Positions 5,685 to 30,208 of a DNA stretch of 64,000 nt are shown here, piece after piece; position 1 is the first letter of the stretch; each line of letters opens with the position of its first letter. Origin of the DNA: Escherichia phage vB_EcoM_WFH. The translations under genes were made by a program, and so were the position numbers. A model generated the notes under the pieces. It was not told the origin of the DNA, did not search any database, and saw only the letters and a program-made list of their open reading frames with translations. The DNA is taken from sequence record NC_048194.1; one strand, given 5' to 3'.

Positions 5685-8009
5685 TTATTTCGCTTCCTTT
5701 AGCGCGGCTATCTCTGCCTCTAGTGACTCGACCTTCTTCATCAACTCCTGCACCACGTGCATCGTATCCAAAAGCATAGGTGTTGTGTCAAGTTCTTTTT
5801 GTTCAACAATTTCTCCTGGATTGCTCCCAACATATTTGCGCGTCTTAACATATAAAGGCTCAACACCCTCTGCTTGCTGTGCAATCACGCCGTGCCGAAC
5901 TCGATTTTGTTCGTCATTGTCATAAATGAACTCTACAAATTCCAGTCCTTTAATATTAGAGTATGATTTGTCAACTCCAACAGGGGCGATGCCATGTTTT
6001 ACACGTGAGTCAGAAGTGCCATTTTTTGTATAACTGAAGTTACCGTAATCGGTTGAACCATATATTTGACCATCAATGTCAAAAAAGTAACGGCAAAATT
6101 TTCCGTTATCTCCACCGATTACCACACAAGCTATGCCGAATGCAGCATTACCTGGTAAATACATATGGTATCCAACCTTGGTTGGGTATCCATTAGGTTT
6201 GGTGGCACCGATAGAATAGCCGCGCACCAGAGTATCTGATCCACTCGCGATGGCCACTCTGTCCATTCCGTTAGTGGTCAAGTTAGATACAGCGGCATCC
6301 GTTATTCCATTCCATGTGCCTAAAGGCGTATACATGCGGAATGGGTTGGTCTTCCCTGACTGTCGAAAGTCAACGGTGCCATCTTCATAGAATTTATAAG
6401 CGTGCTTGGAAGAACCCTCCGCCTCTACGACTGCATAACTAGAAGAACCCCATGAAGAACTTGAGTACAGGCGTGCAAACTGTGATGAACTAGGATTGCT
6501 ATATTTTGACTCTACTTTGCCGCCGACAACCAGTGCGCCTGCCACTGGTGCGCTTGAGTCTGCATTGATTACGCTCCAAGACGTATTCGCAGCAACAAAT
6601 CCACCCGATGCACGAATCACCCAAACGCCAACGAAGTTACGGCCCATGATTTCACTGTTTGAACGGCCATAAACTGGGCTTGATCGACTGGCGTCAAAGC
6701 TTACACGTTGAATACCAGACCCCATGTCGTAGTTCTGTACAGGAGCCTCTGACTGGAAATACAGGAAAGGACCAGTAGCACCGTACTGAATGACGCCACC
6801 GATATTACCGATGATGTTAGGCGCAGCAGAATCAAACACAACACCATCAGCATTGGCGTTTGCCGTTCCATTCCCTGCACCATCACCTCGCCCATAGAGA
6901 GCGGCTAATGAACCAACTTGAACGCCGTTTCGGTCAGGCACGCGGAAAGTCGTTGTACCATTACCAAGTGAATACTTTCCGCGTTTTGTAGGGTCTGCAA
7001 GCCAGTCAGCATCAGCAATAGGAGTCAACATCTGCGCATAAGCCCAAAGCTCAGGCCAGTCTGCACGGTTAAGCAATTGCCCGTCTGCCACAACTTCATA
7101 CGGCTGGATGTATGCGCGACTATCACGTAAGTGAAAATCACCAACACCATAGTTCATTACACCGTTCATGTTCGGTCCAACGGTGCCAGTGTTTATAAGG
7201 TTTTGAACCCAACGTTTAGTCGCAGCATCATAATCATTCACAGGGTCACCAGCAAGCGGAGTTGGGCCTGTCGGTCGAATATTCAACCAAGCCTGCGCAT
7301 TATCCCCTGATCCTGTGCCACCCATGGAAGTGGGAACGATATTTTGATCAGCGACTTGTCCGAATCCAAAAGCAGATTTCATGCCCTGAATGGTAGTCTG
7401 GCCTGTACCACCATTTGTGACTGGGATTACATCTTTGTCGGTGTATATTCGCACCCAATTAGACCAAGCCGATGATGCAGCGGTGTATCTTCTTTGGTGC
7501 AGCGTGTTATTGGAATAAGTTGTATATCTTTGGATGCAACTTTCTGTGGCAACGCCTGTTTGTAGCACCTCAAGAACTCCCGCTTGTTCCACAGGGTAGT
7601 TAAGGGGTGCCGATGCGCCAGCATTTGCTGATTGGTGATATTGACCAAACCATGAACCAGTCAACGCATTAAGGTTGATGCCTGAGGGAATCTCTCCAAA
7701 GTTTCGGACAGTACCCGTCAAAGTCGCAGCAGTTGTTCGAATGGAAAGTAAATCACCAGCCGCCCATGCACGCGCTGCAGTACCTTCCTGTGCACGCTGC
7801 ACGGTCAGGACGTTTCCAACCACGGCTGTTACTGTGACTATTTCAAATTGTAGGCCTGTTGCAGCGTCGACGATTGTCGCCACTACACGCTCGTTTGCGC
7901 CCAAGGTCGGAAAGTCTGACCCTGAGCGAATTGTGATTGTGGTGTCTGAAGTTGTCGTTGGTTGAGCCAGCGCGACCTCAAAGTTGTTTTTGAATATTAG
8001 CCTTGGCAT
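5685..8009 (-). CDS. Tail fibre / tailspike with C-terminal intramolecular chaperone (peptidase S74-like) domain
   Basis: 774 aa; fibre-type N-terminal domain; Gly/Ser/Thr-rich shaft; C-terminal GTSDSRVKHG cleavage-type motif followed by a coiled coil (ESLEAEIAALKEAK); RBS GAGGA. Confidence 0.7.
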   Translation of the reverse strand: MPRLIFKNNFEVALAQPTTTSDTTITIRSGSDFPTLGANERVVATIVDAATGLQFEIVTVTAVVGNVLTVQRAQEGTAARAWAAGDLLSIRTTAATLTGTVRNFGEIPSGINLNALTGSWFGQYHQSANAGASAPLNYPVEQAGVLEVLQTGVATESCIQRYTTYSNNTLHQRRYTAASSAWSNWVRIYTDKDVIPVTNGGTGQTTIQGMKSAFGFGQVADQNIVPTSMGGTGSGDNAQAWLNIRPTGPTPLAGDPVNDYDAATKRWVQNLINTGTVGPNMNGVMNYGVGDFHLRDSRAYIQPYEVVADGQLLNRADWPELWAYAQMLTPIADADWLADPTKRGKYSLGNGTTTFRVPDRNGVQVGSLAALYGRGDGAGNGTANANADGVVFDSAAPNIIGNIGGVIQYGATGPFLYFQSEAPVQNYDMGSGIQRVSFDASRSSPVYGRSNSEIMGRNFVGVWVIRASGGFVAANTSWSVINADSSAPVAGALVVGGKVESKYSNPSSSQFARLYSSSSWGSSSYAVVEAEGSSKHAYKFYEDGTVDFRQSGKTNPFRMYTPLGTWNGITDAAVSNLTTNGMDRVAIASGSDTLVRGYSIGATKPNGYPTKVGYHMYLPGNAAFGIACVVIGGDNGKFCRYFFDIDGQIYGSTDYGNFSYTKNGTSDSRVKHGIAPVGVDKSYSNIKGLEFVEFIYDNDEQNRVRHGVIAQQAEGVEPLYVKTRKYVGSNPGEIVEQKELDTTPMLLDTMHVVQELMKKVESLEAEIAALKEAK

Positions 8010-20665: not shown

Positions 20666-21021
20666 GGATTCCTGGCGTAAACTTATATCGAGTTGCGACA
20701 AAGGTCATCGGTCGCCAACCGATTCAATATTACATGTACAAGGGGCGCACTCTTGATAAAATGCGCAACTACGTTACCACTTATGAAGAACCAATCACGC
20801 TACTTGCTTCGGTGCAGGCTGTTCTTCGAAATCAATACGTCGAGCTTGGATTGGAGCTTCAAAAGAACTATGTCAAAATCTGGGTAGACAAAGACATTGT
20901 TGACCTTGACCGCGACGCTTCCGGCGACTATTTGTGTTTGGTGGGAAAACGTATAAAATGGAAGATGAAACGACATGGTTTGACCAAGATGGTTGGACGA
21001 CTTGCCTTGCCGTGGAAATAA
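20662..21021 (+). CDS. Hypothetical structural protein
   Basis: GTG start overlapping the upstream stop. Confidence 0.4.
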   Translation: MRIPGVNLYRVATKVIGRQPIQYYMYKGRTLDKMRNYVTTYEEPITLLASVQAVLRNQYVELGLELQKNYVKIWVDKDIVDLDRDASGDYLCLVGKRIKWKMKRHGLTKMVGRLALPWK

Positions 21022-21239: not shown

Positions 21240-21632
21240 ATGAGGAAAAGTGAATTTGTCAATGATGAGTCTCAATTTGTAAACGGAAAATTCAGAGATA
21301 TTGAAGATCAAATATACGCTACACGTTTTCAAATCAGCGGCTTATTTCCAGAAGTTCCTGGCAATCCAGAAAAGCCTACTGCTAATGACGTATTGACTTA
21401 TTTGGCAAGATTCATAACTCATAAAGCGAATTTGAGGGATTGGTTCAAAAAGCATCAGGCATCAGTATATCGAATCGACATGAATAATAATGAAAAGTTT
21501 TATGATGACATGTCGCAATTTGAATCATTCCCTTCTTTTGATTTGGTAATACTTCACAGAAACGCAATTTCAATTGATACTCCTGCTGTTGCAAGAGCTG
21601 TTAATAATGATTTGGGTGATATTCCGGTGTAA
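21240..21632 (+). CDS. Hypothetical structural protein (start uncertain; possible frameshift with a 58-codon upstream frame at 21080-21255)
   Basis: ORF 21096-21632 has a TTG start; a protein-like frame 21080-21255 overlaps it. Confidence 0.35.
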   Translation: MRKSEFVNDESQFVNGKFRDIEDQIYATRFQISGLFPEVPGNPEKPTANDVLTYLARFITHKANLRDWFKKHQASVYRIDMNNNEKFYDDMSQFESFPSFDLVILHRNAISIDTPAVARAVNNDLGDIPV

Positions 21633-21633
21633 T

Positions 21634-21783
21634 ATGACAAAATCAAAAATGATAGAAAAACAGATTAAGGCGCTTCAGTCTATGAAGGGGCTTACTGTTG
21701 AGGCAGGATGGTTTGATTCTACCAGATACCCTTCAGAAACTGGTGGAGAAGGAAATACTGGTGTCAGAAGTCGCGCGGCTTAA
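21634..21783 (+). CDS. Small hypothetical protein
   Basis: ATG overlaps the upstream stop. Confidence 0.35.
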   Translation: MTKSKMIEKQIKALQSMKGLTVEAGWFDSTRYPSETGGEGNTGVRSRAA

Positions 21784-21857
21784 CGAGTTTGGTCACATAG
21801 CCGTTTTGAAACTTTGGACAAGGACCAGTCAGGGTAGAAGTGCCACCCAGACCATTC

Positions 21858-22082
21858 ATGAGATATGCCTATGAATTATTCGTTAGTGAGCGCAGTGAAA
21901 TAGAGAATAAAATTGCTAAAAAGATTTTTTCCGGTAAAATAGACGCTAGACAGGCATTGGGTCAAATTGGGCTTGCGATGGAAGCAAAGATTGTCGAATC
22001 AATTAAAAACGGACCGTGGCAACCAAATGCCAGATATACTGTACGTGTGAAGGGGATTCGACAAGCCTTTGATTCACACTAG
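21858..22082 (+). CDS. Hypothetical neck / tail-completion protein
   Basis: ORF 21840-22082; immediately upstream of the sheath gene. Confidence 0.4.
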   Translation: MRYAYELFVSERSEIENKIAKKIFSGKIDARQALGQIGLAMEAKIVESIKNGPWQPNARYTVRVKGIRQAFDSH

Positions 22083-22134
22083 CCTCATGTGGCAATCTGT
22101 CAGCAGCCAAGTCATTAAATAAGAGGACACCGAC

Positions 22135-23673
22135 GTGATCAGTCAATCTCGTTATATTAAAATTGTATCAGGGGTCGGAGCAGGCGCGGCTGTTGCAGTT
22201 CGCAAACTGTCGCTTCGCGTCATGACTTCTAATACAGTTCTGCCGCCGGGCATTGTAGCAGAATTTTCAACGGCTGATGCTGTTGGATCATATTTCGGTT
22301 ATTCTTCCGAAGAATATAAGCGCGCAGCATTATATTTTGGATTCATCAGCAAGCAAATTAACTCGCCTGATTCAATCAGCTTCTCGCGTATTGTTTCAAC
22401 TGCGATTCCAGCAATGGTCATCGGTGATACTGAGCCTAAAGTGCTTGCTACGTTTCAAGCATTCACTGGCGCTATTTTAAGCATCACTTATGATGGCACA
22501 GACTACCTGACTGACGCAATTAACCTTTCAGCGGCAACAAGTCTGGCGAATGTGGCTGAACTTCTGGAAACGGCAATCAATACTAAATTTGCAGCAGAAG
22601 GGGGCACGTCGGTGCCTGCACTTGCTGATGCAGAAGTGTATTGGAACGCTAATACTCAGCAGTTCACGCTGGAAGCAGCGCCGTCGACCGCTGGCGCAGG
22701 CAATCTGTCTATCAACGTCACAGGCCAACCGACCGACCCGTCTCAAGCATTAGGTTGGACCACCACTGGCACCGTAACCGTTGCAGGCCAGGGCGTTTCA
22801 AGTCCGGTAGAAGCCATCGCGGCATCTGTGGAAATCTCCAACAACTTTGGCTCATTCCTTTTTGCTGGGGCTGACCGAACTCTGGAAGAAATTACCGCTG
22901 TGGCAGCGTGGACTCATTCGCAGAATAATATGTACATGTATTTATTCTCGACTTCGTTCGCTAATATCGGGTCATACTACACCGCTCTGAAAGGGTACTC
23001 AGGCGTTGGCATGATGATTCGCGCAACTAACCTTGCAAACGATTACATCGACCAAGCACCTGCTGAAATCCTTGCGGCGACAAACTATAATACTGTGAAT
23101 GCGACTCAAAACTACATGTATTATCAGTTTGATACTCGCAACGTGACTGTTTCAACTGACTCTCGTGCAGACACTGCTGATCAAAACCGTGCTAACTACA
23201 TCGGTGCAACTCAGCAGGCCGGACAAACCTTGGCATTCTTCCAGCGCGGCGTATTGATGGGCGGGTCTACCGCAGCAGTTGACATGAATACTTATGCCAA
23301 CGAGATGTGGCTTAAATCTGCTATCACTTCTCAGCTGTTCAGCATGTTCTTGAATCTTGGTCGCGTGCCTGCAAACGAAGAAGGTAAAGCGACTGTACAA
23401 GCCATGATTCAAGTTGCTGTTGACAATGCGAAGGTTAACGGCACCATCTCTGTTGGTAAGGCGCTGACTGAGATTCAGAAACAATACATCACGCAAACTT
23501 CCGGTGACAACACTGCTTGGCGGCAGGTTGAAACTATCGGTTACTGGCTGACTGTAGATTTTGATACTGAAACCACTTCAGATGGGCGCACCGAATACTA
23601 TGCAACATACACGCTAATCTACTCTAAAGATGATGCTGTGCGTCGCGTTGAAGGTCGTGACGTCCTTATCTAA
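22135..23673 (+). CDS. Tail sheath protein
   Basis: 512 aa, GTG start after AAGAGGA; followed by tube paralogs and tape measure. Confidence 0.6.
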   Translation: MISQSRYIKIVSGVGAGAAVAVRKLSLRVMTSNTVLPPGIVAEFSTADAVGSYFGYSSEEYKRAALYFGFISKQINSPDSISFSRIVSTAIPAMVIGDTEPKVLATFQAFTGAILSITYDGTDYLTDAINLSAATSLANVAELLETAINTKFAAEGGTSVPALADAEVYWNANTQQFTLEAAPSTAGAGNLSINVTGQPTDPSQALGWTTTGTVTVAGQGVSSPVEAIAASVEISNNFGSFLFAGADRTLEEITAVAAWTHSQNNMYMYLFSTSFANIGSYYTALKGYSGVGMMIRATNLANDYIDQAPAEILAATNYNTVNATQNYMYYQFDTRNVTVSTDSRADTADQNRANYIGATQQAGQTLAFFQRGVLMGGSTAAVDMNTYANEMWLKSAITSQLFSMFLNLGRVPANEEGKATVQAMIQVAVDNAKVNGTISVGKALTEIQKQYITQTSGDNTAWRQVETIGYWLTVDFDTETTSDGRTEYYATYTLIYSKDDAVRRVEGRDVLI

Positions 23674-23720
23674 ATAATTGCCGCCGTAACTGGCGGCCAT
23701 CTCTCTGAGAGGAATCTGTA

Positions 23721-24188
23721 ATGATTAACGTTTCCGGTTTTGGCGCTTCGATTCGTTTAGTGGCATCAAACACTTTTCCAAATGGTGTAACTCTTTCTGA
23801 TTTCGCAGATGATGCTGATCCGATTGACGCGCCTGATCTTCAAATCTCTGAAGCGGCAATGGGATTGAACGGTGACTTGGTAGTCTGGAACCGTGCCAAC
23901 CCTCTTGAAGTAGGCGTCAACATCATCCCTACTTCTGAAAGCGATGTAAACTTAGATGTTCTGGCAGCGGCTAACCGTGTAGGCAAGCGCAAGAACTCTG
24001 CGAAAGACGTGATCACCCTTATTCTGACCTACCCTTCTGGCATGGTCATCACACTGAACAAGGGAACTTTGACGACTGGTTCAGTGATTCCTGGCATCCA
24101 GTCTCAGGGTCGTGTAAAAACACGTCAATATCGCTTTAAGTTTGAGAACGTAGTCAAAACTGGCGTGAGCAACCAAGAGATTTTATAA
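23721..24188 (+). CDS. Tail tube protein (paralog 1)
   Basis: 155 aa after the sheath; N-terminus MINVSGFGASIRLVA matches the paralog at 25139. Confidence 0.55.
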   Translation: MINVSGFGASIRLVASNTFPNGVTLSDFADDADPIDAPDLQISEAAMGLNGDLVVWNRANPLEVGVNIIPTSESDVNLDVLAAANRVGKRKNSAKDVITLILTYPSGMVITLNKGTLTTGSVIPGIQSQGRVKTRQYRFKFENVVKTGVSNQEIL

Positions 24189-24517
24189 TGTATCAAATAC
24201 CACTTGACAGCGTACCTAACCAGAATATCAGCTTTAACGTTGACGGTGCTTATTGGCAGCTGCACATATTCGCCGCAATTGAGCACATGTGCGCAGATGT
24301 TTACCGCAATGGCGAATTGTTGATTCAGGGGGTACGTTGTTTTGGTGGTATACCAATGGTGCCTTATAAATATCTCATGATTGGGTACGGCAACTTTATT
24401 TTTGACAGCGTACCAGATTATGAGCATTTTAACTCTGGCGGCTGTAATTTATATTACATGTCAGAATCTGAGTTGGCTGAATTCCAGAAAACTGCTGAAG
24501 CGGAGTTTGCAATTTGA
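24188..24517 (+). CDS. Hypothetical tail protein
   Basis: 109-aa ORF, overlapping stop/start. Confidence 0.45.
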   Translation: MYQIPLDSVPNQNISFNVDGAYWQLHIFAAIEHMCADVYRNGELLIQGVRCFGGIPMVPYKYLMIGYGNFIFDSVPDYEHFNSGGCNLYYMSESELAEFQKTAEAEFAI

Positions 24518-24870
24518 CAACTCTAACGATTGAAGTTAATGATAACAATGACCTGTTTCTGCCTGATGGAAGAAATTTGAATATCCTGTCAGGAGAAAAG
24601 GCCATGGTACAAGTTATCAAGGCGGCGCATCAAATGCGACTTGGTGAAGACTTGTACGATGTTGAAAACGGAGTCGATTATTTAGGCACTGTTTTCAAAT
24701 CGCCCGTTGATGAAGACGGTGCGAGAAAGTCGATTGCAGATGCTATTCTGAAGAAAGCAGACGTTGCCGGAATCGACTCATTGACTGTCACCATCCAAAA
24801 CGGTATTCTTGGATTCACCGCTGAAGTGGTGACTATTTATGGCGAACGTATAAAGGTGAGTAATCAATAA
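24514..24870 (+). CDS. Hypothetical tail protein
   Basis: TTG start, coupled to neighbours. Confidence 0.4.
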   Translation: MTTLTIEVNDNNDLFLPDGRNLNILSGEKAMVQVIKAAHQMRLGEDLYDVENGVDYLGTVFKSPVDEDGARKSIADAILKKADVAGIDSLTVTIQNGILGFTAEVVTIYGERIKVSNQ

Positions 24871-25136
24871 TGGCACAAGTAATTCATTTTGCTAATGGCG
24901 TCATGAAATTTGGCGAAAAATTTGAAGACGCATCGGAATTATTCAAAAAGACTTCAAACCCTGTTGCGGAGAAGAAAGAACAGGTTGAAGAGAAGGCAGT
25001 AGAATCGAAAGTTGATTTCGATTCAATGAGCGTCTCTGAATTGAAGGCTTATGCAAAGGAACATGAGATTGACATTAAAGGTCTTTCTTATAAGGATGAA
25101 ATTCTTGCAGCAGTTAAATCTGCATCTGCGGAGTAA
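24870..25136 (+). CDS. Small protein with a Rho-N / HeH-like motif
   Basis: SMSVSELKAYAKEHEIDIKGLSYKDEILAAVKSA. Confidence 0.45.
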   Translation: MAQVIHFANGVMKFGEKFEDASELFKKTSNPVAEKKEQVEEKAVESKVDFDSMSVSELKAYAKEHEIDIKGLSYKDEILAAVKSASAE

Positions 25137-25138
25137 AC

Positions 25139-25636
25139 ATGGTCAATATTAGTGGATTTGGCACAAGCATTAGAATTGTCGCTCTCCAATCTTTTCCTGT
25201 TGGGCTGAATATCAGTTCTTTGTCTGATGACCAGGATTCGCTAATTATTGAGGAAGTTGAATCAGTAGGCTATCAACTTACTTATGACGGCGGCATTTGT
25301 ATTTATGACAAGGCCGCCGTCGTTCGCGTATCCATTGCAGTGATCCCAAACACTGAAGACGACATAAACCTAAAGCTTTTGCTTTCCGCTCGTAAAGGCG
25401 GATTCAAGTGGCTTCCTATACAGGATGTCACATCAATGCTTATTACATATCCTGATGGCGGCAGAGTAGCATTTTCGAACGGGACCATCATCAGCGGTCC
25501 GCTTGGCGACTCCATTGAGCAATCAGGTCGTCGCAAGACAAACAGATACACATTCGTGTTTGCCAGCTACGGCGGCGCACAGAGTACATCGCAAATTGCA
25601 AAAGGCGTGGTGCAGAGCATATTGGGGTCAATTTAA
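25139..25636 (+). CDS. Tail tube-like protein (paralog 2)
   Basis: N-terminus MVNISGFGTSIRIVA and shared C-terminal pattern with 23721-24188. Confidence 0.5.
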   Translation: MVNISGFGTSIRIVALQSFPVGLNISSLSDDQDSLIIEEVESVGYQLTYDGGICIYDKAAVVRVSIAVIPNTEDDINLKLLLSARKGGFKWLPIQDVTSMLITYPDGGRVAFSNGTIISGPLGDSIEQSGRRKTNRYTFVFASYGGAQSTSQIAKGVVQSILGSI

Positions 25637-26169
25637 TGGCTATCGATTTATTGTCATATAGTCTTTCAAACAGAAGCTTCAAAATAAGAAGCTTCAACCT
25701 TGGGGAAGTGTCAACGCTTGGTTGGGCTATTGTTAACGTAAAAATAAGACTCCAAGCAAAGATATTCAAAAACCAAAGGGAAGACGGAAGCTATATCGTC
25801 GATGGCAGAGTCAAAATGCCTAGAATATTGACTGTGACTGTAATAGCACAGACAAAAAGCGCGTCCGACGCAATCACAAAGATGTTGCAGAACAGGTCCA
25901 CGATATACACAATAAATTCTCGTGGGCTAATCTTTGAACGTATGGTGCTGCAAAATAACAATTTCAGCCAAGATGCTGACAATATAACCTCACAACCCAT
26001 ACAACTGGTCTTCCATGAGATATTAACACAGCAGGATGTGTCTATTCAAACAGCGCAAGCAGCCGACTCCACTGTCATTGAGCGCGGCATCGCTTATATA
26101 AAAGAGACTACTGCCAGCGTCACTGGCGTTGCAACAAAGGTGATGAATGGCATCAAGGGGATGTTCTGA
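25636..26169 (+). CDS. Hypothetical tail protein
   Basis: 177-aa ORF, ATGA overlap. Confidence 0.45.
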   Translation: MAIDLLSYSLSNRSFKIRSFNLGEVSTLGWAIVNVKIRLQAKIFKNQREDGSYIVDGRVKMPRILTVTVIAQTKSASDAITKMLQNRSTIYTINSRGLIFERMVLQNNNFSQDADNITSQPIQLVFHEILTQQDVSIQTAQAADSTVIERGIAYIKETTASVTGVATKVMNGIKGMF

Positions 26170-26729
26170 TGGACTTTGTTTCGATTCTGCTCTCTGGTCA
26201 ATCTCTGACCATAACGAATGAGTCAACAGGGATTCCTGTATGGGCAAAGCTTTCTCCAGTGTCTGCAGAAATAACATCACCAGCAGAAACTACTCAATTT
26301 CCACTTGCTGGAACGGCGATGCAGGTTGTGGAAGTATCAAGCACATCCTCAGTAAGCAATTTACAGGCGGCAAAAGTAATAATGCCAGCGCACATGGCGC
26401 TAAACGTAATTTGCAATGACCAATCGACTATTGAAAACATAATTAATACATTCGACAATGATGAAGTTACATTTTCAATAACTTCTCGAAGCATAATTGC
26501 AAGCAAAATGTCGATGTCTGATGTCGAAATAACTCAGTCAGAAGAAAACCTGAATGGAGTCTCAATTGTAATAACATTTGAACAGACGTCATTTAGTATT
26601 CAGGGAAGCTTTGACCCTAAACAGTCCGCAGATGAATCGTCAAATGGCGTGGCTATTAAAGAGCCAGTCAGTTTGACTACAACTGTGAGTTCGTTATATA
26701 ATAAAATAAAATCAACAGTAGGAATATAA
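26169..26729 (+). CDS. Hypothetical tail protein
   Basis: 186-aa ORF, RBS AAGGGGA. Confidence 0.45.
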   Translation: MDFVSILLSGQSLTITNESTGIPVWAKLSPVSAEITSPAETTQFPLAGTAMQVVEVSSTSSVSNLQAAKVIMPAHMALNVICNDQSTIENIINTFDNDEVTFSITSRSIIASKMSMSDVEITQSEENLNGVSIVITFEQTSFSIQGSFDPKQSADESSNGVAIKEPVSLTTTVSSLYNKIKSTVGI

Positions 26730-26730
26730 A

Positions 26731-27147
26731 ATGAAGATCACCAATAAACAAACTGGTCGCAAAGTAGAAATTAAAATCAGCAAAATGACTGCGATGGAAG
26801 GTTGGAACATACAGCGCCGATTCATCGAATTTGCAATGTCAAAAGACCCTGCATTTCGTTCAGAATATACAATGGAAGTATTAAGCTTTGCAAAGGTTGA
26901 ACTTGATGTAGGGCAAGAAATTCCTCTGAGCACTGGCGCACTTATTGACAACCATCTTGGCGACTGGGAAAACTTGAAATTGGTTTTCGAAGCGGTGTTG
27001 ATGGAAAACGGAATAAACCCAGAGACTCACGCTGAACGTGAAGGATACTGGGAACAGGCTGGCGGCGAAATGGCTGCAGCATTTATTGGCGAATCGATGC
27101 GATTAATCGCGCCATTCCTCAGCGGCGAGACTCCAAACAAGGGGTAA
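26731..27147 (+). CDS. Tail assembly chaperone-like protein
   Basis: 138 aa immediately upstream of the tape measure. Confidence 0.4.
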   Translation: MKITNKQTGRKVEIKISKMTAMEGWNIQRRFIEFAMSKDPAFRSEYTMEVLSFAKVELDVGQEIPLSTGALIDNHLGDWENLKLVFEAVLMENGINPETHAEREGYWEQAGGEMAAAFIGESMRLIAPFLSGETPNKG

Positions 27148-27150
27148 ACT

Positions 27151-29331
27151 GTGTCTGACTCATTAGAAAAATTTGTTCTTCAATATACGGTGGACTTGAA
27201 AGAGTCCATCAATCGTCTTGAGCAATTGCAAGATAAGGTTGATCAGACAAACAAAAAGGCAAAGTCAGCTGGCAAAGACTTCACTGGAGCATTCAAGGAT
27301 GTGTTTGGGGAGTTGAAGCCTCTCACAGCTGAACTGGGGTCTATTGACGGAATCCTTGCGCGGCTTACTTATCGCTTTGCCGCGCTCGTCCCTGTTGTCG
27401 CAGGATTGGCTGTCGTAGTCAAATCTATCGTTGATGTTCGAAAAGAATACGAAGCGCAAAGGAAGCTTGGATTTGAAGCAGGTCTTTCACCAATTGGCGT
27501 AGAGCAATTACAGCGACAATTGAATGAAAGTTCAGGCGGAGTTCTTGGTGCGCAAGGGTCAAGGGATTTAATCAGCAAGGCTTCTAATCTCGCATTCAAC
27601 GCATACACCAACCCCGATGTGATGAACAAGGATAACTTGCTGCTGAACAAGATGGGGACCAGTCCTTTCAACAGTAACGGCGGCATCAAAGACACAAACC
27701 AGCTGCTTGATGAAATTGGCACAAAGCTGAGAAGTGTGAATGAGCAAACCGCTCGTGCTATTGGTGCTCTGGCAGGTTTTACCGCCGATGAAGTCCGTGC
27801 GCTTCGTGAGCGAAATCAATCAGTCAAAGAAAGCACCCGTATAAGCGACGAAGAAACGGCGAAGCTGCAAAGACAGCAGGCTGCGCTTGAAACGATACGA
27901 AACAGCATGGGCCAAATTCAAGAAGACTGGCGACGCATTGAACTGGTAATCGGTGAGAACGTGATGCCTGCATTCTCGACGCTTGTCAGCAAGACTGCCG
28001 ATACAGTCGAAGGATTCCAGATGATGTTCCAAAGGATGTCTGATGGATGGTCTGAATTTGTCGACAATTTCATCGCTGATTTGAAACACCCGTTCGATAA
28101 ACAGGCAGCTGTTAACGAGCGTCACGAGCGTGCCGTTGATAGATGGATCACTCAGATGGCTGACGGCGATGTGAAACGCCAGAGGAACCAGGAGCAAAAC
28201 GCGGCTGAGCAACGTTCTGCTCAAGCACTTTTCACTCGCGATATAAACCTGTTTTCAAGCGCCGTTTCAACCTTTGCTGGTGTTATTGATGAGCGACAAG
28301 CGTGGGCTGCATGGGCTGGTGAGATAGGACGAAGCGCAGGCCAATCCGCAATGCCTGGCACGCCAGCACTAAGCACTGGCGCGACCGTAGGCAACAACTT
28401 GGGGTCAGGAAATCCGACTGCATATGACTCAATCTATGAGGAAGCCTCCAAGCGTTATGGAATCCCTGTTGCGATGATGAAGGCCGTCACAGAAGTCGAA
28501 TCTGGATTCAACCCTAATGCCGTAAGCGGAGCAGGCGCGACCGGATTGATGCAAATAATGCCTTCCAACTTCAAGGGACTTGGCATCACAGACGGTAACG
28601 ACCCAAGACAAAACATTATGGGCGGCGCTCAACTTCTCAAGGAATATTTAACTGCTGCCAATGGCGATTGGAATCTTGCGCTGACTATGTATCACGGCGG
28701 ATATGACCGCAGCGGATGGGGAAAGAACACCCGCGCATACCCTGGCAAGGTGATGGCCGCTCTCGAACGACAGGCGAATGGAGAATACGCCACGGGAGCG
28801 CCGCAAGGTGCACCAGTTACTCCAGTGCTTAGCGGTAGCGGAGCAGAAGCGCCGAAAGGAAGCTATGCACCAGTACAAGGCCAATCCCGCCAAACGGTGC
28901 AATACAGACAGTTGCAAGAAGCCATTGCAGGATACCTAAACGTGCCAGTTGAGCAGCTGATGCAAGGGCAAGTTAACAAAGGTGATATTGACTTTGCTCA
29001 AACTTACCTTAAACTTGGAACGCAAAGGGATTATATTAAAAACATGCAGCTGGCTTCAACTCCAGGCGTAAGACCGAACATTCAGGCCGAAGCGATGAAG
29101 AATGCTCGTCTTGCGGCATTCCAGCTTGAGGCGTTCCAGAAATACGGCGGCGACCTCTCCGCGAATAGTCGACCTGGTGGGCGTGATATTACTGTGGGTC
29201 AGAAAAACGTTGTCATCAACGTCAACGGCGCTCAAGACCCACGAAGCACGGCTATTGAGACTAAGCGCGTGCTTGAACAAGATGATATCAACGACATAAA
29301 CAACCTTACTGCTACACCTTTGAAGTGGTGA
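27151..29331 (+). CDS. Tape measure protein with lytic transglycosylase (SLT) domain
   Basis: 726 aa, coiled-coil N-terminal half; SLT motif EVESGFNPNAVSGAGATGLMQIM; GTG start after AAGGGG. Confidence 0.8.
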   Translation: MSDSLEKFVLQYTVDLKESINRLEQLQDKVDQTNKKAKSAGKDFTGAFKDVFGELKPLTAELGSIDGILARLTYRFAALVPVVAGLAVVVKSIVDVRKEYEAQRKLGFEAGLSPIGVEQLQRQLNESSGGVLGAQGSRDLISKASNLAFNAYTNPDVMNKDNLLLNKMGTSPFNSNGGIKDTNQLLDEIGTKLRSVNEQTARAIGALAGFTADEVRALRERNQSVKESTRISDEETAKLQRQQAALETIRNSMGQIQEDWRRIELVIGENVMPAFSTLVSKTADTVEGFQMMFQRMSDGWSEFVDNFIADLKHPFDKQAAVNERHERAVDRWITQMADGDVKRQRNQEQNAAEQRSAQALFTRDINLFSSAVSTFAGVIDERQAWAAWAGEIGRSAGQSAMPGTPALSTGATVGNNLGSGNPTAYDSIYEEASKRYGIPVAMMKAVTEVESGFNPNAVSGAGATGLMQIMPSNFKGLGITDGNDPRQNIMGGAQLLKEYLTAANGDWNLALTMYHGGYDRSGWGKNTRAYPGKVMAALERQANGEYATGAPQGAPVTPVLSGSGAEAPKGSYAPVQGQSRQTVQYRQLQEAIAGYLNVPVEQLMQGQVNKGDIDFAQTYLKLGTQRDYIKNMQLASTPGVRPNIQAEAMKNARLAAFQLEAFQKYGGDLSANSRPGGRDITVGQKNVVINVNGAQDPRSTAIETKRVLEQDDINDINNLTATPLKW

Positions 29332-29335
29332 TCAT

Positions 29336-30208
29336 TTGAAAAAGAGAATCCTTAAAGTCACCTTATCCATGCCGGATGGCACAAGCCAAGTGCTTGACGA
29401 AGGATTGATGCTTAGATGCCGAATCAAAAAGGCAGCACTTTCCGTTCAGAATAAGGCCACGATTGAAGTCGCAGGATTAACAGGGTACTTGAGAGAGTAC
29501 CTGCTTTCCAACTTCACGGCATTCAACAAACGTCTGCGTGATCAAGGCCAGCTGGCGGCGAACTACGTCAACGTGACTATTGAAGCTGGATACAGAGAAG
29601 GGAATGTAATCAGCAGCAACTTGGTATACAAGGGACAGGTGACGACAGTTGAGATAACAGCGCCGCCGCCGAATATTGTCATCAGAATCACTTGCTACAC
29701 CAACCAAATAAACAGAACTAAGTTCATCACTCAAGCTGCGCCATCCAACCCGACTTTCAAAGAGTTTGTGGAATGGTCTGCAAAACAAATGGACATCGAT
29801 ACTGTTATTTGTGATACGTCGATTAACAATCAGCGACTTGTGAATCCAGGAAGGACGACATATGTTGCTGCTGCGCTGCTGCTTGAGATCCAGAACTATC
29901 AACGCAACTCCATCGCGGCATACATTGATGACGATACGTTAATTGTCAAGGATAAAGACAAAATTCTAAATCCAGACCAGATTACGGTCATTGAGGAATT
30001 TGTCGGAATACCGATGTGGAATGAGTGGGGTGCAGACTTCACTTGTATGTATAACGCAGATTTGAAGCTTGCACAAGGTGTTAAATTCAAATCAGTCTTA
30101 AACCCAAGCTTGAACGACACTACATTTGTCATCATGCAACTTGAATATGATTTAGCAAGTCGTGATGATATATTTACGGTGACGGGCGGCGTTGCACCAT
30201 CGGCATAA
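29336..30208 (+). CDS. Baseplate / tail hub protein
   Basis: 290 aa directly after the tape measure; start (TTG 29336 or ATG 29369) uncertain. Confidence 0.4.
   Translation: MKKRILKVTLSMPDGTSQVLDEGLMLRCRIKKAALSVQNKATIEVAGLTGYLREYLLSNFTAFNKRLRDQGQLAANYVNVTIEAGYREGNVISSNLVYKGQVTTVEITAPPPNIVIRITCYTNQINRTKFITQAAPSNPTFKEFVEWSAKQMDIDTVICDTSINNQRLVNPGRTTYVAAALLLEIQNYQRNSIAAYIDDDTLIVKDKDKILNPDQITVIEEFVGIPMWNEWGADFTCMYNADLKLAQGVKFKSVLNPSLNDTTFVIMQLEYDLASRDDIFTVTGGVAPSA

Follow-up and report, generated by a model that had tools for sequence, protein, structure and literature searches.

The tail tube and baseplate tube paralogs of Escherichia phage vB_EcoM_WFH: an old gene pair with a predicted role in joining the tail tube to the hub

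Two related genes in the tail region of Escherichia phage vB_EcoM_WFH very probably encode the major tail tube protein and a baseplate tube protein that forms a single ring, with the latter joining the tube polymer to a symmetry-reducing ripcord layer and to the hub. The genes were analyzed within a window of 64,000 nucleotides from the genome record (NC_048194.1), where they lie on the plus strand at 23721-24188 and 25139-25636 and encode proteins of 155 and 165 amino acids, respectively. The stretch that contains them is the tail and baseplate-cap module of an E. coli myophage of the genus Wifcevirus (Lindbergviridae). A megablast search with positions 22000-27200 against a phage collection returned 27 records, nearly all from Escherichia and Shigella Wifcevirus phages and with Wifcevirus WFH as the top match at 99.8% identity, and the annotated relative, phage kaset, is classed as Lindbergviridae; Wifcevirus. 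The paralogy of the two proteins, their orthology to proteins of solved structure, the synteny of their surroundings and the age of the duplication are observed directly in the comparisons described below.

A first-pass annotation of this DNA had singled out the pair for near-identical N-termini and similar lengths, and both features are borne out. The proteins begin with MINVSGFGASIRLVA (23721-24188) and MVNISGFGTSIRIVA (25139-25636), in which 11 of 15 residues are identical, and their lengths differ by only 10 residues. That annotation had also allowed for the possibility that the likeness might be confined to a few N-terminal residues, but the pairwise alignment extends over 143 amino acids. 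In BLASTP, residues 1-143 of each protein, nearly the whole length, align without a single gap, with 47 of 143 positions identical (33%), 61% positives and E = 2e-32. Both proteins also belong to PF22764 (E217_Gp32), a Pfam family of tube-fold proteins from PB1-like myophages with a gathering threshold of 27 bits; the first copy scores 202.5 bits (23721-24185, profile positions 1-143 of 144) and the second 180.4 bits (25139-25633, profile positions 2-143). The E-value of the pairwise alignment, together with two family scores above the gathering threshold, rules out a chance similarity, and we take the two proteins to be true paralogs whose likeness goes far beyond coincidence. Each gene is preceded by a Shine-Dalgarno-like motif, GAGAGGA upstream of 23721, which would be a strong ribosome-binding site, and GGAG upstream of 25139.

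The 155-residue protein is assigned as orthologous to two tail tube proteins of known structure, gp32 of phage E217 and gp33 of phage Pa193. Its best matches in the PDB are the Pa193 tail tube (9b42_M, E = 1.9e-48) and E217 gp32 (8fuv_T, E = 5.8e-42), whereas its matches to the baseplate tube chains of the same phages, gp37 and gp36, are weaker (about 4e-25, the best being 3.4e-25). Identity to the two solved tube proteins is about 55%, and all three belong to PF22764 and are encoded immediately after a DUF3383 sheath gene. The sheath gene of this phage lies at 22135-23673, immediately before the tube gene, and the same order is found in four other genera. In the phylogenetic tree described below, the protein groups with the first copies (the A clade). 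It differs from Pa193 gp33 and E217 gp32 in being five residues longer at the C-terminus.

For the 165-residue protein the pattern of matches is reversed. Its closest PDB relatives are Pa193 gp37, described as 'baseplate tube' (9b45_M, E = 1.1e-52), and E217 gp36 (8env_I, E = 2.2e-49), and its similarity to the true tube proteins is weaker (E = 1.4e-21 for Pa193 and 3.2e-16 for E217). Identity to gp37 and gp36 is about 52% over the full length, and a C-terminal extension is common to all three. The gene lies downstream of the baseplate adaptor genes and directly upstream of the ripcord-1/ripcord-2 pair, so that its placement between a small gene and ripcord-1, with matching flanking genes, is the same as in Pa193 and E217. 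We assign this protein, a member of the B clade in the tree, as the ortholog of E217 gp36, or 'tail tube-B', and of Pa193 gp37. The differences lie in the host (E. coli and Shigella), in the genus (Wifcevirus) and in a two-residue insertion at alignment columns 94-95, which the second copy of PB1 has and this protein lacks; its place in the virion is predicted from gp37 and gp36, which have been seen in the virions of Pseudomonas phages.

These assignments bring with them a detailed structural context. The tail tube of E217 consists of 34 stacked hexameric rings of gp32 (204 copies) inside the sheath, and gp36, which superimposes on gp32 with an RMSD of 3.6 Å, forms a single hexameric ring of 6 copies that is concentric with gp32 (PMC10329688). 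Three gp37/gp38 heterodimers sit on this ring and convert the six-fold symmetry of the tube to the three-fold symmetry of the trimeric hub gp41 and the tip gp43, and the cap is still found on the distal end of the tube after contraction (PMC10329688). The account given for Pa193 gp37 is the same, with an RMSD of 4.2 Å to the tube protein gp33 (PMC11456595). Single-sequence AlphaFold2 models of the two proteins studied here had low confidence (mean pLDDT of 31.8 and 30.3). Because these models are uninformative, the fold and stoichiometry that we propose for both proteins rest on the solved orthologs, as do their positions in the virion; at 52-55% identity, the similarity to the solved chains should be ample for assigning the fold of both paralogs.

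The genes around the pair fit the same architecture. Upstream, the sheath gene (22135-23673, plus strand, GTG start) encodes a 512-residue protein that matches DUF3383 (E = 3.5e-120) and aligns over residues 1-512 with residues 1-504 of E217 gp31 and Pa193 gp32 (E = 8e-167). Exactly three open reading frames on the plus strand separate the two paralogs, in agreement with the first-pass annotation, and they appear to encode two baseplate adaptors and one protein of 88 residues. The first (24188-24517, 109 residues) is assigned as the helical-bundle adaptor of the baseplate, orthologous to E217 gp33 and Pa193 gp34 (9b45_A, E = 7e-26; 8env_G, E = 1.4e-25; Pfam Pam3_gp18, E = 4.8e-16), and the second (24514-24870, 118 residues) as the sheath initiator, orthologous to E217 gp34 and Pa193 gp35 (9b45_G, E = 4.6e-23; 8env_H, E = 1.3e-21; phrog_120). 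The third (24870-25136) occupies the position of E217 gp35 and Pa193 gp36 and matches phrog_10541, a group of unknown function.

Downstream of the second paralog, also on the plus strand, lie the genes for ripcord-1 (25636-26169, 177 residues), the ortholog of E217 gp37 and Pa193 gp38 (9b45_S, E = 4e-20; 8eon_A, E = 1e-19; Gp38_E217), and ripcord-2 (26169-26729, 186 residues), the ortholog of E217 gp38 and Pa193 gp39 (9b45_V, E = 8e-27; 8eon_D, E = 1e-26; Gp38_E217, E = 3.5e-72). A shared fold has been reported for tube-B and ripcord-1 in E217 (PMC10329688), although the pairwise comparison of the two proteins in this phage detected no sequence similarity (E = 11). The next gene (26731-27147) encodes a conserved protein of 138 residues, which had no match in a search of Pfam profiles and belongs to phrog_4627 (unknown function, E = 1.7e-64); judging by its position alone, directly upstream of the gene in the tape measure position, it is likely to be a tail assembly chaperone. 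The tape-measure-position gene itself (27151-29331) encodes a 726-residue protein with a lytic transglycosylase domain at residues 430-529 (Pfam SLT, E = 3.3e-24), labelled 'lytic tail protein' in related records, and is followed by the gene for the 290-residue baseplate or tail hub (29336-30208), the ortholog of E217 gp41 and Pa193 gp42 (8eon_E/9b45, E = 8.7e-86, residues 1-283 to 1-280). The sheath, helical-bundle, sheath initiator, ripcord-1, ripcord-2 and hub proteins all match solved parts of E217 and Pa193, and the order of their genes is identical.

This arrangement is conserved well outside Wifcevirus. The order of sheath, tube, three small genes, tube-B, ripcord-1, ripcord-2, a gene of the 138-residue type and the SLT protein is shared by Serratia phage MyoSmar, Xanthomonas phage XcP1, Pseudomonas phage PB1 and Burkholderia phage Karil-Mokiny-1; each of the four has a counterpart of the 138-residue gene in the same position, and the hub gene is next in line in MyoSmar and Karil-Mokiny-1 as well. 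By these comparisons, synteny with Pbunavirus, Myosmarvirus, Carpasinavirus and a Burkholderia phage extends over the whole block, from the sheath gene to the hub gene.

The 88-residue protein has no relative among the chains covered by a PDB sequence search, and a Pfam search found a sub-threshold SAP/Rho_N-like motif at residues 47-87 (a SAP/HeH-like end). Its gene is fast-evolving; what the counterparts at this position conserve is a short N-terminal motif alone (FANGVM in the alignment consensus), followed by a low-complexity tail. Its counterpart is not mentioned among the proteins built in the cryo-EM studies of E217 and Pa193 (PMC10329688, PMC11456595). We consider it quite improbable that this protein serves as a dedicated factor in assembly, absent from the virion itself, that limits the baseplate tube to one ring or prevents the paralogs from mixing. 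A scan for a terminator or attenuator that could underlie a difference in copy number between the tube genes found nothing convincing after the tube gene. The sole candidate was a GC-rich hairpin, GCCGCC-gtaact-GGCGGC (23680-23697), within the 47 nt that separate the sheath gene from the tube gene; the scan reported it on the minus strand only, and there is no T-run on the plus strand.

The divergence between the copies is unevenly distributed. Only 4 of 30 alignment columns are identical between the paralogs in columns 31-60, compared with 11 of the first 15 residues. In E217 gp32, an extended beta-turn at residues 35-56 makes most of the lateral gp32:gp32 hydrogen bonds (PMC10329688), and the poorly conserved columns overlap this element. 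We infer that the divergent beta-turn may keep the two paralogs from forming mixed rings, and that the conserved N-terminal strand probably serves a contact that both need, either in ring stacking or in the wall of the lumen. Residues that distinguish the B clade include G44, Y45, D50, D57, K86, G87, P93, T98, P121, D124 and N135 (numbering of the 165-residue protein). The five B sequences also extend about 12-17 residues beyond the end of the A sequences and share a conserved motif, GAQ...L. This C-terminal tail might make contacts specific to the baseplate. We put this forward tentatively because the accounts of E217 and Pa193 do not fully agree on the C-termini that the adaptors bind (PMC10329688, PMC11456595); the E217 paper assigns the corresponding contacts to the ripcords (PMC10329688).

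Taken with the solved structures, these features suggest how the two proteins would be used. By analogy with E217 gp32, the 155-residue protein would polymerize into hexameric rings along the tail, and the 165-residue protein would form one hexameric ring, coaxial with the tube, at the baseplate end. The tube-B ring would retain the surfaces for stacking on a tube ring, for which the near-identical N-terminal strand is a candidate, having diverged in the beta-turn of the lateral contacts and gained the C-terminal tail for contacts in the baseplate. Its distal side would be a platform for three ripcord-1/ripcord-2 heterodimers, which would lower the symmetry from six-fold to three-fold to suit the trimeric hub and the tail tip, and the helical-bundle protein and sheath initiator would link the cap to the sheath and the wedge ring. 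The only remaining variation for the pair is that Wifcevirus may use the tube-B ring differently from Pbunavirus.

The first-pass annotation had also raised a recent duplication. On this reading a tandem-like event, suggested by the similar lengths and almost identical N-termini, would have produced two redundant or alternative tube proteins, but the distribution of the pair and its phylogeny contradict this. A tblastn search with the 165-residue protein found 733 matching places in 378 phage records, about two per genome, with hosts that include Pseudomonas, Escherichia, Serratia, Xanthomonas, Burkholderia, Salmonella and others. More distant myophages, Bordetella phage IFTN1 and Burkholderia phage Bm1, have one detectable copy, which adjoins the sheath gene. 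We aligned 12 tube and tube-B sequences and constructed a neighbor-joining tree with 200 bootstrap replicates. All of the second copies, drawn from five phage genera, separate from the first and single copies in 200 of 200 replicates. Identity in the same alignment is 43-60% between orthologs and 26-39% between paralogs; for the two copies of this phage it amounts to 52-55% when each is compared with the matching protein of PB1 (Pbunavirus), as against 33% between the two copies themselves. Because orthologs are more alike than paralogs and the B clade has full bootstrap support, the duplication must predate the divergence of these genera. The tube/tube-B duplication is thus ancient; the tree refutes a recent origin, which is further opposed by the retention of the pair in about 370 genomes and to which we give almost no credence.

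The nature of the second copy and its part in assembly raise two further alternatives. The terminators of some tails have a tube-like fold, and on this ground the 165-residue protein could be imagined as a tube terminator at the neck end, another of the roles proposed in the first-pass annotation. Its solved orthologs, E217 gp36 and Pa193 gp37, are located in the baseplate and not in the neck, however, and E217 has a separate terminator-like neck protein, gp29 (PMC10329688); we reject a terminator role on these two grounds and regard its probability as negligible. In keeping with this, a candidate neck gene upstream of the sheath gene (about 21607-22119) is labelled 'tail completion or Neck1 protein' in the related kaset record. 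Returning to the baseplate tube assignment, T4, Mu/P2-type tails, pyocins and related injection systems build the baseplate first, and the tube then grows around the tape measure from a tube-like layer of the baseplate. By analogy with this general pathway for contractile tails, exemplified by T4, the tube-B ring may be the nucleus from which the tube protein polymerizes along the tape measure. The first-pass annotation had envisaged one copy as the tube and the other as its initiator; a tube and a baseplate tube-like ring are supported by the orthology to E217 gp32/gp36 and Pa193 gp33/gp37, and nucleation itself is proposed by analogy. The ring might instead serve purely as a structural adaptor of the cap, joined to a preformed tube without nucleating polymerization. 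The wording of the E217 study, in which the cap assembles 'onto' the tube, runs contrary to an initiator role (PMC10329688), and sequence does not settle the order of assembly. A hub-first pathway would agree with the gene order, in which the cap genes stand beside those for the putative chaperone and tape measure. Because the tails of T4, Mu/P2-type phages and pyocins assemble from the baseplate, we consider the later addition of the cap unlikely.

A tube-fold paralog that forms one ring per particle and joins the polymerizing tube to the hub is familiar from other contractile systems, namely gp48/gp54 of T4 and the Afp5/Pvc5 'tube-B' proteins of extracellular injection systems. The predicted tube-B of this phage follows the same logic, and the systems differ in the number of tube-like layers and in their symmetry adaptors. 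In the Wifcevirus lineage, unlike these others, the symmetry adaptors would be the ripcord-1/ripcord-2 heterodimers.

[quoted passage not shown] The finding is therefore real but ordinary, with little value as a discovery, and its practical use lies in annotation. The naming of these proteins is inconsistent even in the PDB, where E217 gp36 is called 'Ripcord' in 8env and its Pa193 equivalent 'baseplate tube'. Many records of Wifcevirus, Pbunavirus and related phages, and PHROGs 2420 and 2580 as well, give the name 'tail fiber protein' to the tube, the baseplate tube and both ripcords, and PF22764 itself bears the title 'Tail fiber protein gp32'. This mislabelling could mislead work on host range and receptor-binding proteins in these therapeutic phages.

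In the annotated Wifcevirus relative kaset, the start codons assigned to the sheath and hub genes appear, from the sequence comparison, to lie too far downstream (window 22135-22221 for the sheath and 29336-29368 for the hub; positions 6222 and 13369 of comparison locus L001). Read from the GTG at 22135, the sheath is 512 residues long, as opposed to the 483 annotated in kaset, and its alignment begins at residue 1 of the 504-residue sheath of Pseudomonas phage E217. Similarly, when the hub, annotated as 279 residues in kaset, is read from the TTG at 29336, its alignment begins at residue 1 of E217 gp41.

Upstream of the sheath, six single-base indels, at 20930, 21077, 21227, 21753, 21809 and 22052, set the window apart from Wifcevirus WFH and phage kaset alike. 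These break three neck-region genes across reading frames, whose kaset counterparts are labelled 'head protein', 'hypothetical protein' and 'tail completion or Neck1 protein'. The window and Wifcevirus WFH differ at 12 positions in 1.7 kb, a count that includes the six indels and the gaps at the alignment ends. Because the downstream tail genes are intact, the indels appear to be artefacts of sequencing or assembly and not biological.

The short gap that separates the sheath stop codon from the start of the tube gene contains a perfect 6-bp GC hairpin (23680-23697, GCCGCC-gtaact-GGCGGC), and a terminator is annotated at the same junction in Xanthomonas phage XcP1. No T-run was found 3' of the hairpin on the coding strand, and the element may act in mRNA stability or processing. 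Between the two tube genes, the 88-residue protein encoded at 24870-25136 shares only an N-terminal motif (alignment consensus FANGVM) with the proteins encoded at the corresponding position in MyoSmar, XcP1, PB1 and Karil-Mokiny-1; the remainder is a low-complexity, charged and variable stretch, with a sub-threshold SAP/Rho_N-like helix-hairpin motif at the C-terminus. A PDB search found no solved relative, and the main text of the two cryo-EM papers (PMC10329688, PMC11456595) makes no mention of the counterparts, E217 gp35 and Pa193 gp36. We suggest that this protein may be a non-virion assembly factor.

Two myophages more distant from the window differ from it in having a single detectable tube gene. 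At the search sensitivity used, Bordetella phage IFTN1 and Burkholderia phage Bm1 each yielded one PF22764-like copy and no second, directly downstream of a large gene annotated as 'hypothetical protein' in IFTN1 and 'tail sheath' in Bm1. In these two phages the baseplate tube layer may have diverged beyond detection, or may have a different construction.

The tube, baseplate tube and two ripcord genes (23721-26729, and in loci L001-L005) are labelled 'tail fiber protein' in RefSeq and Pharokka-style records, a name that goes back to PHROGs 2420 and 2580 and to the Pfam title 'Tail fiber protein gp32', and one that is at odds with the cryo-EM assignments. The adjacent ripcord-1 (25636-26169) and ripcord-2 (26169-26729) are themselves paralogs: each matches Pfam Gp38_E217, and pairwise comparison gives 23% identity (E = 1e-5). 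In E217 and Pa193, ripcord-1/ripcord-2 heterodimers convert six-fold symmetry to three-fold. With the ripcords as a second paralog pair beside the tube pair, the module therefore contains two adjacent duplications, both of them old.
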